A DNA stretch of 64,000 nt, taken from contig CAWAIF010000003.1 of assembly GCA_963782055.1 (NCBI GenBank), positions 1,120,001 to 1,184,000 of the forward strand, read 5' to 3'. The DNA comes from an uncultured delta proteobacterium (GTDB lineage Bacteria > Myxococcota_A > Polyangia > Polyangiales > Polyangiaceae). Below are positions 30,372-32,023 of this stretch, one piece after another. Within the stretch, counting starts at the first letter, position 1; each line of letters begins with the position of its first letter. The position numbers were made by a program, and so were the translations under genes. The notes beneath the pieces are model-generated. The model did no database searches and was not told the DNA's origin. It saw only the letters and a program-made list of their open reading frames with translations.

Positions 30372-30815
30372 TCAGCGTCGCGCAGCGTCACAGGCGCCGT
30401 CGACGCACACCGCCCGAAAGCTCTCGGCGCTCTCGGTCGGCTTGCAGAGGGCGTCGCACTTCGCGCACTTCACCTTCTTCGTCGCGCACTCGCCGCGCTC
30501 CCGCACGAGATCGACCTTGGTGATCGAGCGTGGCGGCACCGCGCAGCACGCGCAGCAGTCGGGGCTCGCGTTCGTCACGGTGCACTCGTCGTCGCGAGTG
30601 CACTGTCCCCCTCCACCTGGGTGGAGCTCGAGGGATGATGGATGCGGCAGCGGCGCGACCGCGGCGACCGCGGTCGCGGCGTCGACGGTCGCAGCGTCCG
30701 CCGAGCCGATGGATACGCTCATCGGCTCGGCGGGCCTAGGCTGGCACGCGATCAGCGTCGCCGAGAATGCGAGGAGCGAGGCGGGCGTGGCCCCGCTCGC
30801 AAGGCGCCATCTCAA
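30372..30815 (-). CDS. Cys-rich lipoprotein immediately downstream of the actin-like gene
   Basis: 'LLAFSATLIAC' lipobox; 'CTRDDEC...DCCACC...CAKCDALC...AVCVDGAC'; in-frame TTG at 30815 overlaps the actin TGA (or GTG at 30821); start uncertain. Confidence 0.6.
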   Translation of the reverse strand: MRWRLASGATPASLLAFSATLIACQPRPAEPMSVSIGSADAATVDAATAVAAVAPLPHPSSLELHPGGGGQCTRDDECTVTNASPDCCACCAVPPRSITKVDLVRERGECATKKVKCAKCDALCKPTESAESFRAVCVDGACDAARR

Positions 30816-32023
30816 GTGCACTTGTGGAGGACGACCGCCGGTCCCTGCTGCTGGTACTCCGCGCGCGTGATGTACATCGCGTCGAAGGTGCTGAGGCTCG
30901 CGAGGATGGACTCCCCGATGAAGACGGAGTTCGTCGCGTCGGCCGGCTGCACCACCTTTGTCGTCATCGCAGTCGGCGCCAGCGCCTTGACGCCCGCTTG
31001 CAGGCGCGCGCCGAGGCCGCGGTAGTGACCCAGGCGCCCGGCGATCACGATGTTGTTGTAGAGATCCTTCCGGATGTCGACGTCGCACTTCATGATGAAC
31101 TCGTAGACGAGCTTGTGGATCCCCTCCTGCTCCAAGCTGATTAACTGCGGCTCGAAGTACGCCTCCGGCGCCATGAAGCGCTCGGTGCCGACCGTGATGG
31201 TGCGGCCGCTGGAGAGCCGGAACGGACTGGCAGCGTGTTGTTCTTTCCTCGGATTCAGCGCGATGTAGCCGAACGTCTGGTCGAGACGTCGCTGGTCCGT
31301 CTCGTCGTTGGCGGGCACTCCGCGCGGGGCCTCGAGCGCCGACCAGCGCTTCAGGATGTCTGCCTCCCCGATGTCGAGCCTCAGCGCGGCGTGCGGCAAG
31401 GCGTATCCTTCGTAGATCGGCGCGACCCTCGTGATGTCGCGGTCTCCCTCGAGCACGACGCCCGTGGTCCGGCCCGAAGCGTACAGGGCGAGGACGGGCT
31501 CCTGCGCGACGTAGAAGGCCTGGGCACCAACCCCGTTGAAGATCGTGGTGGTCAGCCGCATCCGGACGGCCTTCGAGGTGAACAGTGGCTCGCTGACGAG
31601 GATGCGAGCGTTCGCGGGCGCCACCCCGAGCTTTCCAAGTACGTAGCGTACCAGCTGGCCGAACACTGCGAAGTTCGTGATGACCTGCTTCTGGATGGGG
31701 TACACGAGGCTGAGTTGTGCCCGGCGGGCGAGCGCGTCGTTCCCGAAGGCGACAGCGGTGCCGGAGCCCCTCGGCGCGCCGGCCACCGCCGGCACCACCA
31801 GGCGCGGAGCGGTGTCCCCGCCGATGCCCGCCTGGATCGTGTCGGAGTCGAGGGCCAGGATGACGTTGCGGACGGCGCCGTGCGGCGTCACCGGCCGCGG
31901 GCGCCCGATGGTGTTGGGTGGGAATGTCGGCGCCTGCACGACGGGAGCCGGCCCTGCGGAGGCGACCGCAGGCAGGGCAGTGACAGCGAGGGCGAGCAGG
32001 GCGAGGGTGGCGAGATGGCGCAT
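30812..32023 (-). CDS. Eukaryote-type actin homologue with N-terminal signal peptide (403 aa)
   Basis: Near-identical actin signatures [20 protein letters not shown], ERF-x2-PEA-x-F, [22 protein letters not shown], EY...GP...KC; GGAG RBS 5 nt before ATG; signal [23 protein letters not shown]. Confidence 0.95.
   Translation of the reverse strand: [403 protein letters not shown]

Follow-up and report, generated by a model that had tools for sequence, protein, structure and literature searches.

A predicted signal-peptide actin with a degenerate nucleotide site and a conserved barbed-end face in a Myxococcota genome

Results

An actin gene on a Myxococcota chromosome

Our study concerns a window of 64,000 nucleotides (C3:1120001-1184000) from the genome of an uncultured soil myxobacterium (Myxococcota), and in particular one gene of its minus strand that encodes a eukaryote-type actin, hereafter the window actin, with a predicted signal peptide at the N-terminus (Table 1). 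The genome amounts to 7.58 Mb in 3 contigs and is 97% complete; the contig that holds the window measures 7.0 Mb (7,003,164 bp). The open reading frame (30812..32059, minus strand) encodes 415 amino acids (aa) when read from the upstream ATG at 32059, while the 403-aa form begins at the ATG at 32023, which is also the start of the public gene call P0002 (403 aa).

Table 1. Features of the window actin and its immediate neighbours, with the identity of parts of the protein to the eukaryotic actin consensus.
Feature	Position	Strand	Identity to consensus	Remarks
Actin-family gene	30812..32023	-		403 codons plus stop; open reading frame translation
GGAG ribosome-binding site	32029..32032	-		5 nt before ATG 32023; read from sequence
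Predicted Sec/signal peptidase I (SPase I) signal peptide, 23 aa	31955..32023	-		cleavage expected after ASA (ASA/GP)
Pro-rich flexible linker	31889..31954	-		from AlphaFold2 (AF2) predicted local distance difference test (pLDDT) and start of alignment
Degenerate phosphate-1 loop	31832..31855	-		ALDSDTIQ for DNGSGMxK: D11A, N12L, G13D, G15D, K18Q
Degenerate phosphate-2 loop	31427..31450	-		EGDRDITR for DSGDGVTH: D154E, G156D, D157R, G158D, H161R
Degenerate adenosine loop	31022..31039	-		GRLGHY for GGTTMF/Y: G302R, T303L, M305H
Whole window actin			39%	
Barbed-end face			89% (41/46)	
Pointed-end face			19% (6/32)	
Subdomain 1			40%	
Subdomain 2			30%	
Subdomain 3			53%	
Subdomain 4			26%	
Downstream lipoprotein gene, 149 aa	30372..30821	-		GTG start overlaps actin stop (GTGCACTTGA); GC content at third codon positions (GC3) 0.86
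Upstream gene, 245 aa	32137..32874	-		ends 77 nt before ATG 32059 and 113 before ATG 32023; GC3 0.83

Comparisons of sequence and of predicted structure place this protein among the actins. It matches the Pfam Actin family (PF00022) with an E-value of 2.4e-69 and 234.3 bits, where 27 bits would suffice, while the MreB_Mbl model gives 18.5 bits, which is under its own cut-off. Searched against the solved structures of the PDB, the protein matches 160 distinct chains at E<=0.001; each of the 60 listed is an actin, and Acanthamoeba actin 4efh_A ranks first (E 3e-80, ~42% identity), its residues 9-374 aligning with residues 67-414 of the 415-aa form. The frame is intact across about 350 aligned residues, with no frameshift and no truncation. 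The AF2 model, obtained from a 34-row alignment, has a mean pLDDT of 86.9 and a predicted template modelling score (pTM) of 0.81, with 286 of the 403 residues at a pLDDT of at least 90; it has the four-subdomain actin fold, and its top Foldseek matches are all actins (TM-score, TMt, 0.87-0.93; root-mean-square deviation ~2 A to G-actin). These results bear out the first-pass annotation of the locus, which had read it as a full-length eukaryote-type actin distinct from MreB, FtsA and ParM, and all the motifs that it quoted are present in the translation. Its statement that the gene has no introns and uses GC-rich codons also holds, as the open reading frame is uninterrupted and GC3 is host-like, at 0.89 over the whole gene and 0.83 over the first 48 codons. 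The window actin is a derivative of eukaryotic actin and its full-length relative.

Eukaryotic contamination or a chimeric assembly can be ruled out. The 7.0-Mb contig, the GC content of the region (68-70%, and 68-69% in the 1-kb bins around the gene, with flanks of 70-77%) and the housekeeping neighbours establish that the gene is bacterial. The 44 genes predicted in the window include thrA, genes for a threonine synthase-type PALP, a DEAD helicase and anthranilate synthase, and uppS, cdsA, gdh and miaA, so the bacterial neighbourhood described at first was correctly recognized.

Loss of the nucleotide site

For the analysis of nucleotide binding, actin numbering was anchored on the DNGSG motif of the canonical reference P0051, and 26 positions were considered that we take to be those of the pocket and the catalytic site. 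According to the alignment, three of them are kept in the window actin (S14, R210, and G301). The changes include D11A, G13D, G15D, K18Q, Q137E, D154E, G156D, and D157R, together with G158D, H161R, K213D, E214Q, G302R, T303L, and K336T; the substituting residues are mainly Asp, Glu, and Arg, and His73 of actin is replaced by Lys. This retention (3/26) contrasts with an overall identity of 42% (binomial p 8e-4). In a panel of 28 eukaryotic, Asgard, and near-canonical bacterial actins, 95 columns are near-invariant, and the window actin keeps 62 of these: 1 of the 6 inside the pocket list versus 61 of the 89 elsewhere (Fisher p 0.018). The set of motifs found in an ATP-hydrolysing, polymerising actin (phosphate-1 and phosphate-2 loops, adenosine loop, Gln137, and His161) is not retained. 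The near-total loss of the ATP site is the main anomaly of this protein, and one on which the first-pass annotation did not remark; the window actin is an unusual pseudo-ATPase actin even if it should prove not to be exported.

Uneven conservation of the two filament faces

The identities in Table 1 refer to a barbed face defined as positions 139-148, 165-172, 283-294, 322-325, 346-355, and 374-375, and to a pointed face defined as positions 40-50, 61-65, 200-208, and 241-247. The barbed-end groove, which runs between subdomains 1 and 3, the 283-294 loop, and the C-terminus are almost unchanged with respect to conventional actin. At the other end of the molecule, the contacts are not intact: the DNase I-binding loop (D-loop) is 4-7 residues shorter, depending on the alignment, and seven residues are deleted at 232-238. 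In real actin, the barbed-end face is the docking site for the D-loop of the neighbouring subunit, for profilin, gelsolin, cofilin, and WH2 helices, and for macrolides that bind in the cleft.

Bacterial actins without a signal peptide also have barbed faces that are better conserved than the whole protein (85% versus 66% in L013, 85% versus 55% in L057, and 87% versus 63% in L031). Judged from these alignments, the barbed-face bias is a tendency shared by divergent bacterial actins that is most extreme in the window actin. Our study also identified a clade of ~330-aa actins from Myxococcota-like metagenome-assembled genomes (MAGs), made up of L033, L043, and L057 (= L007), in which subdomain 2 is cleanly lost and no signal peptide is present; the barbed face is 78-85% kept in L033 and L057, the members measured, and the pointed-face identity of the clade is 0-3%.

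The N-terminus and its predicted signal peptide

Read from the ATG at 32023, the window actin begins with the regions of a signal peptide, namely an n-region (MRH), a hydrophobic core of 17 residues, and an A-x-A site (ASA) that precedes GP. The most hydrophobic 15-mer of the entire protein lies in this N-terminus (Kyte-Doolittle 2.39). Inspection and a filter of our own agree on the features of a Sec/SPase I substrate: a basic n-region, a hydrophobic h-region, small residues at -3 and -1, and no lipobox Cys. This filter is crude: it requires a basic residue and a hydrophobic 15-mer together with a small-x-small motif, and it admits no acidic residue. Of the 4114 ATG/GTG/TTG codons that the whole window contains in its six frames, 11 passed, ATG 32023 among them, and most of the others are 5' ends of genes supported by GC3. 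The predicted signal peptide is present with either ATG (32023 or 32059).

In the AF2 model, residues 1-42 of the 403-aa form have a pLDDT below 50, a helix at 4-13 is not packed against the fold, and the first strand of the actin fold begins at residue 52. The Pro-rich linker has no counterpart in actins, since in the 415-aa form the PDB alignment sets in only at residue 67. The signal-peptide pattern, the GGAG site, and the linker reported at first are thus supported, the first two by the n, h, and c regions, the 5-nt spacing, and the filter result, and the third by the translation and by the low-confidence residues of the model. A start downstream of the hydrophobic segment, the alternative raised in the same annotation, is unsupported: no motif resembling a Shine-Dalgarno (SD) sequence was seen on inspection ahead of the downstream in-frame GTGs at 31939 and 31891, the second of which precedes the first strand of the fold by 9 codons.

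Twin-arginine (Tat) export is unlikely under the criterion that we used, which is S/T-R-R-x-F-L-K directly before a weakly hydrophobic h-region, with a basic c-region. The RR pair, which is part of the protein only if ATG 32059 is the start, stands 7 residues upstream of a core that is strongly hydrophobic; TGAP instead of xFLK comes after it, and no basic c-region is present. Sec-type export of the window actin is a strong prediction, and the protein is probably exported. In one soil metagenome, three read-length contigs are at least 99% identical to the locus, and one of them (31937-32091) covers the signal-peptide codons and the start; this metagenome is possibly the source sample, and consequently the match provides no independent support. 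No RNA sequencing run is listed as containing the locus.

Relatives and distribution

No close relatives of the window actin were found: a search with the whole protein gave, after the query, eukaryotic actins that are at most 44% identical to it, and a scan of metagenomes with patterns from the N-terminal 121 aa gave 475 pattern matches and no relatives. In our sample of the phylum, actin is present in 7 of 401 genomes, including that of the window. A pattern scan of the GTDB species genomes identified 65 eukaryote-type actin loci, many of which are contaminants. The earlier view that such actins are rare in bacteria should consequently be qualified, in that the loci are more numerous than was implied, while many of them do not count. 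Of the 65 loci, 26 (for example, L016, L017, L023, and L025) are near-canonical actin genes or fragments, most of them on contigs of 0.3-2.8 kb and mostly in isolate assemblies of Microbacterium, Devosia, Shimia, Alcanivorax, Thermus, and others; these are probably eukaryotic contamination of reference genomes.

Special attention was given to the N-termini, which were inspected at 39 of the 65 loci; the other 26 lie on short contigs or are fragments without an N-terminus. One of the 39 has a clear signal peptide (L054), one is ambiguous (L050), one is a fragment (L075), and 36 have none. L054 (= G354, = P0122; 2806-4011, plus strand) belongs to the Myxococcota MAG HK-STAS-MYXO-48, where it is annotated just as 'actin family protein', and actin occurs in only 2 of the 18 genomes of its order. 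A search with the N-terminal 170 residues of L054 identified P0123 (398 aa, from an assembly contig), which is 52% identical to it over the N-terminal region and 59% identical over 331 aligned columns. Both proteins consist of a signal peptide, a low-complexity linker, and an actin, so this architecture is not unique to the window actin; the two represent a second lineage of such actins.

Three further loci have unusual N-termini or compositions. L050 (2878-3960, plus strand), from a gammaproteobacterial MAG, is a divergent actin without subdomain 2 in which a hydrophobic stretch leads to ANA/AP before the fold; internal Met codons make its start ambiguous. L075 (2938-3345, plus strand), from a Bradymonadia MAG, encodes 135 aa that comprise a signal peptide, a stretch of 30 residues near-identical to actin subdomain 3 (Pfam Actin E 8e-4, under the cut-off), and an Ala/Lys-rich helical tail; it is flanked by the gene for a giant, Cys-rich surface protein on one side and a TonB-type, receptor-like gene on the other, and it is possibly a secreted actin-peptide mimic. 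L069 (= L008:1486-2841, minus strand) is a Myxococcota actin with an acidic (GEADGK)n N-terminal extension that keeps 10 of the 26 pocket residues.

Full-text searches of the literature found no description of a signal-peptide actin, in agreement with the original claim that a Sec-exported actin had not been described; the original paper on BARP lay outside their scope, and a remark there on the N-terminus of BARP could escape them. Eukaryote-type actins in bacteria are known, and what is new is a signal-peptide actin with a dead nucleotide site and a preserved barbed face.

Phylogenetic position

A tree was built under LG+C20+F+G4 (posterior mean site frequency, PMSF, quick search) with the Asgard archaeon Borrarchaeum as outgroup; actin-related proteins (Arps) and BARP were left out. 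Relative to this outgroup, all bacterial sequences fall inside the crown of eukaryotic actins. The window actin belongs to an internally unresolved clade of 11 rows (Shimodaira-Hasegawa-like approximate likelihood ratio test, SH-aLRT, 97 under C20) that contains solely Myxococcota and Myxococcota-like sequences, except for the metagenome reference P0051. It is, in other words, a protein that branches with eukaryotic actins and is encoded on a bacterial chromosome, and the horizontal acquisition proposed in the first-pass annotation fits both the position in the eukaryotic crown and the mostly Myxococcota clade. No other branch in the tree is as long as its terminal one, with 1.2-1.6 substitutions per site versus a median of 0.12-0.15 (1.61 versus 0.15 under C20). 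Under LG+G4, the window actin, L054, and P0123 form a clade (SH-aLRT 93), and a tree constrained for two taxa had a higher likelihood than the one searched freely (p-value of the approximately unbiased test, p-AU, 0.82).

Comparison with known bacterial and eukaryotic actins

Conventional actin (4efh_A; beta-actin, 6nbw_A) shares with the window actin the four-subdomain fold (TMt 0.90) and the conserved barbed end. It is a cytosolic protein without a targeting sequence, whereas the window actin has a predicted Sec-type N-terminus after a GGAG site, followed by a Pro-rich linker, and differs further in the pocket, in the replacement of His73, in the shortened D-loop and the 232-238 deletion, and in the lack of an acidic N-terminus.

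BARP of Haliangium ochraceum was the first bacterial actin (PMC3035250) and clusters, like ActM, with eukaryotic actins (PMC6906331). It likewise represents the eukaryotic type of actin within the Myxococcota, and its presence there is attributed to horizontal transfer (PMC3035250, PMC6906331); the portions of these two papers that were available mention no export signal, and the comparison is by description alone. The available portion of PMC3482391 contains nothing relevant to actin export. Our pattern scan of the GTDB species genomes returned no Haliangium record. ActM of Microcystis aeruginosa PCC 7806, as described in the portion of PMC3254629 available, is also a eukaryote-type actin that was acquired by a bacterium and has altered properties, but it forms an intracellular shell with the profilin PfnM, whereas the genome of the window has no profilin. 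The Microcystis locus L051 starts with MSEIV, has no signal, and keeps 19 of the 26 pocket residues, unlike the window actin.

The nearest counterparts in architecture are L054 and P0123, which also have a degenerate ATP site (L054 keeps 9 of the 26 positions); L054 shares G13D and G302R with the window actin, and P0123, by eye, shares G302R (AGR). They differ from it in several respects: they are 35-36% identical to the window actin, their linker is acidic or acidic and Pro-containing instead of Pro-rich, subdomain 2 is mostly deleted, the barbed face is less conserved (59%), and no lipoprotein gene lies downstream.

In G160, a genome of the same family as that of the window, a profilin gene (L006:329-850, plus strand) lies directly upstream of an actin gene (L006:1483-2598, plus strand). 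The profilin (Pfam Profilin, 1.5e-9) has a twin-arginine-type signal (RRAFL). The arrangement differs from the one studied here in that the profilin bears the signal, while the actin is canonical, has no signal, and keeps 20 of the 26 pocket residues. No signal was found in the profilin of the genome G096. With the Tat-signal profilin of G160, Myxococcota would appear to have another way of marking proteins of the actin system for export.

Neighbouring genes

The lipoprotein encoded immediately downstream of the window actin has a lipobox (LIAC), a low-complexity linker, and a Cys-rich domain of ~75 aa, and neither the protein nor this domain matches a Pfam family. Homologues of the domain are found in lipoproteins of two other genomes of the genus, both of which lack actin (L087:1501-1929, L088:1501-1731, and L089:1501-1989, with tandem copies in one genome); in the alignment of these loci with window 30372-30821, 10 Cys are invariant. 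A complex prediction of actin residues 45-403 with the Cys-rich domain scored 0.01 against a mark of 0.32, which has no weight either way.

The 245-aa protein encoded upstream has a weak full-length SMI1/KNR4 (SUKH)-like match (Pfam SMI1_KNR4, E 0.041, under the cut-off), and no signal peptide was seen in it; SUKH proteins are often immunity proteins. Four further genes for lipoproteins or signal-bearing proteins lie within 4 kb (28669-29670, 30030-30306, 32906-34285, and 35443-36678). A truncated reverse-transcriptase-like remnant at 34380-35162 (minus strand) matches the first 55 of the 205 RVT_1 positions (E 0.042); after the match its frame degenerates and overlaps the lipoprotein gene 32906-34285. 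A scan of 30200-33100 for promoters and terminators gave no sites.

With the Pfam models, no profilin, gelsolin, or cofilin was found in the genome of the window; as a control, the profilin search was positive in 2 of 4 other Myxococcota genomes with actin. In the congener G190, the flanking genes are spread over different contigs and the actin region has no match, which left no insertion site to define, and there is no synteny between the two signal-peptide actin loci. Cleft-binding macrolides of myxobacterial origin, such as chivosazol, appear among the fold matches of the window actin; a linked polyketide or macrolide cluster can be ruled out, as there are no such genes among the 44 predicted in the window. 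The same genome has a second weak PF00022 match (G000:C3:1058776-1059339, L003; 35.5 bits, in a 372-aa frame), which is probably an MreB/FtsA-type protein, because the same model matches in 5 of 14 control genomes.

Discussion

We propose, with a probability of roughly 55%, that the window actin is exported and acts as a mimic of G-actin that carries no nucleotide, does not polymerise, and binds its ligand through the barbed-end groove. Its export, its cleavage, its failure to polymerise, and the kind of ligand are what we infer from the sequence and the predicted fold. The Sec pathway would take the protein out of the cytoplasm, and signal peptidase I would cut after ASA to leave a protein of ~380 aa composed of a flexible Pro-rich tail and a complete actin fold. 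There is no ATP outside the cytoplasm, and the window actin would no longer need it; Asp, Glu, and Arg side chains may fill and staple the cleft in the place of Mg-ATP. Owing to the degenerate pointed-end face, with its short D-loop and altered subdomain-4 contacts, a polymer of the F-actin type is not expected. The likeliest targets would be eukaryotic actin, at pointed ends or D-loops, or the actin-binding proteins of eukaryotes that the bacterium meets, with a partner in the bacterial envelope as the second possibility. A groove that has barely departed from the eukaryotic consensus, in a protein that has otherwise drifted far, favours a ligand set by real actin biology.

It is important to consider a number of points that weigh against this proposal. 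First, a Sec signal by itself reaches only the periplasm, and neither the exterior of the outer membrane nor a eukaryotic cytosol. Second, a partial loss of the ATP site and a high conservation of the barbed face are also found in bacterial actins without a signal peptide (L013, L057, L033, and L069), and these traits are consequently not specific to export. Third, the gene is a singleton, as a word-index search with residues 13-135 matched only itself among 4362 scored candidates, and it was not found in any of six genomes of the same genus (84-98% complete), so it is dispensable. Fourth, the grouping of the signal-peptide actins joins long branches and becomes a polytomy under C20; constraints with L069 or with L050 are likewise not rejected (p 0.43 and 0.27). 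Given this, the signal-peptide actins may, but need not, have arisen once. Fifth, the n-region read from ATG 32059 contains RR, although the Tat consensus is not matched. Finally, the 26 pocket positions follow the actin literature and the positions of the two faces follow F-actin structures, and both lists are presumably the appropriate ones.

The alternative that best survives is that of an exported protein with a purely bacterial job, for example as a periplasmic or surface scaffold for an envelope partner such as the presumably co-transcribed Cys-rich lipoprotein. We consider it possible but rather unlikely. The actin stop overlaps the lipoprotein start in a neighbourhood rich in lipoproteins, yet the family of this lipoprotein is also present in congeners that have no actin. 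In the same way, delivery by Sec just to the periplasm, in a genome that lacks profilin, gelsolin, and cofilin, agrees with a bacterial partner, while a groove at 89% identity in a protein at 39% overall is easier to explain by an actin ligand than by a bacterial partner with which it co-evolves.

A divergent actin that stays in the cytoplasm, either because its true start lies downstream (for example, at GTG 31891) or because the N-terminus is an uncleaved appendage, is in our opinion quite improbable. This GTG is well placed with respect to the first strand of the fold, but it has no SD-like motif, nor does GTG 31939, whereas ATG 32023 has its GGAG and was selected by an independent gene caller (P0002). 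High-GC DNA readily gives Ala/Leu-rich peptides; against this, GC3 stays high in the N-terminal codons and few candidate starts in the window show a signal-like pattern (11/4114). Although 36 of the 39 inspected bacterial loci have no signal, the exceptions being L054, the ambiguous L050, and the L075 fragment, two other actins (L054/P0122 and P0123) carry a signal peptide at the equivalent position, and a protein located outside the cytoplasm could well do without an ATP site.

Least probable of all is that the gene is a decaying relic, left over from the horizontal acquisition of an actin and now without a function, and that drift has produced its dead ATP site and odd N-terminus: the longest branch in the tree, the destroyed site, and the failure to find it in the six congeners agree with this, and a long open frame is weak evidence because stops are rare in DNA of 70% GC, but neither a frameshift nor a truncation interrupts the 350 aligned residues in spite of 1.2-1.6 substitutions per site, the two faces differ as 89% to 19%, 62 of the 95 near-invariant columns are kept, GC3 is host-like, and 286 of the 403 residues are modelled at a pLDDT of at least 90.

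Actin is known from textbooks as a cytosolic, ATP-dependent polymer that is folded by a chaperonin. A broader and, in our estimation, unlikely extension of the preferred reading, that of an exported actin mimic, is that the signal-peptide actins of Myxococcota form a small family of exported weapons or decoys that fold without ATP or chaperonin and have kept the barbed docking face alone. They would pass from the periplasm to the outside through vesicles or type II secretion, and there they might cap the pointed ends of the actin filaments of grazers or eukaryotic prey, or soak up profilin, cofilin, and gelsolin. If this were true, then, with the Tat-tagged profilin found in a related genus taken into account, a bacterial lineage would be handling proteins of the actin system outside its cytoplasm. 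The preferred reading by itself, a natural actin with a dead nucleotide site that is exported, would imply that the actin fold can be stabilised without a nucleotide, which would be useful for actin biophysics and for engineered monomeric surrogates, and the window actin would be a naturally evolved reagent in which the barbed-end face alone is on offer. Considered with the export-tagged profilin, it would point to an unrecognised interaction of Myxococcota with the eukaryotic cytoskeleton. This would also be relevant to what eukaryotic signature proteins do in the bacteria that acquired them horizontally, and to the debates that link myxobacteria to the evolution of eukaryotes.

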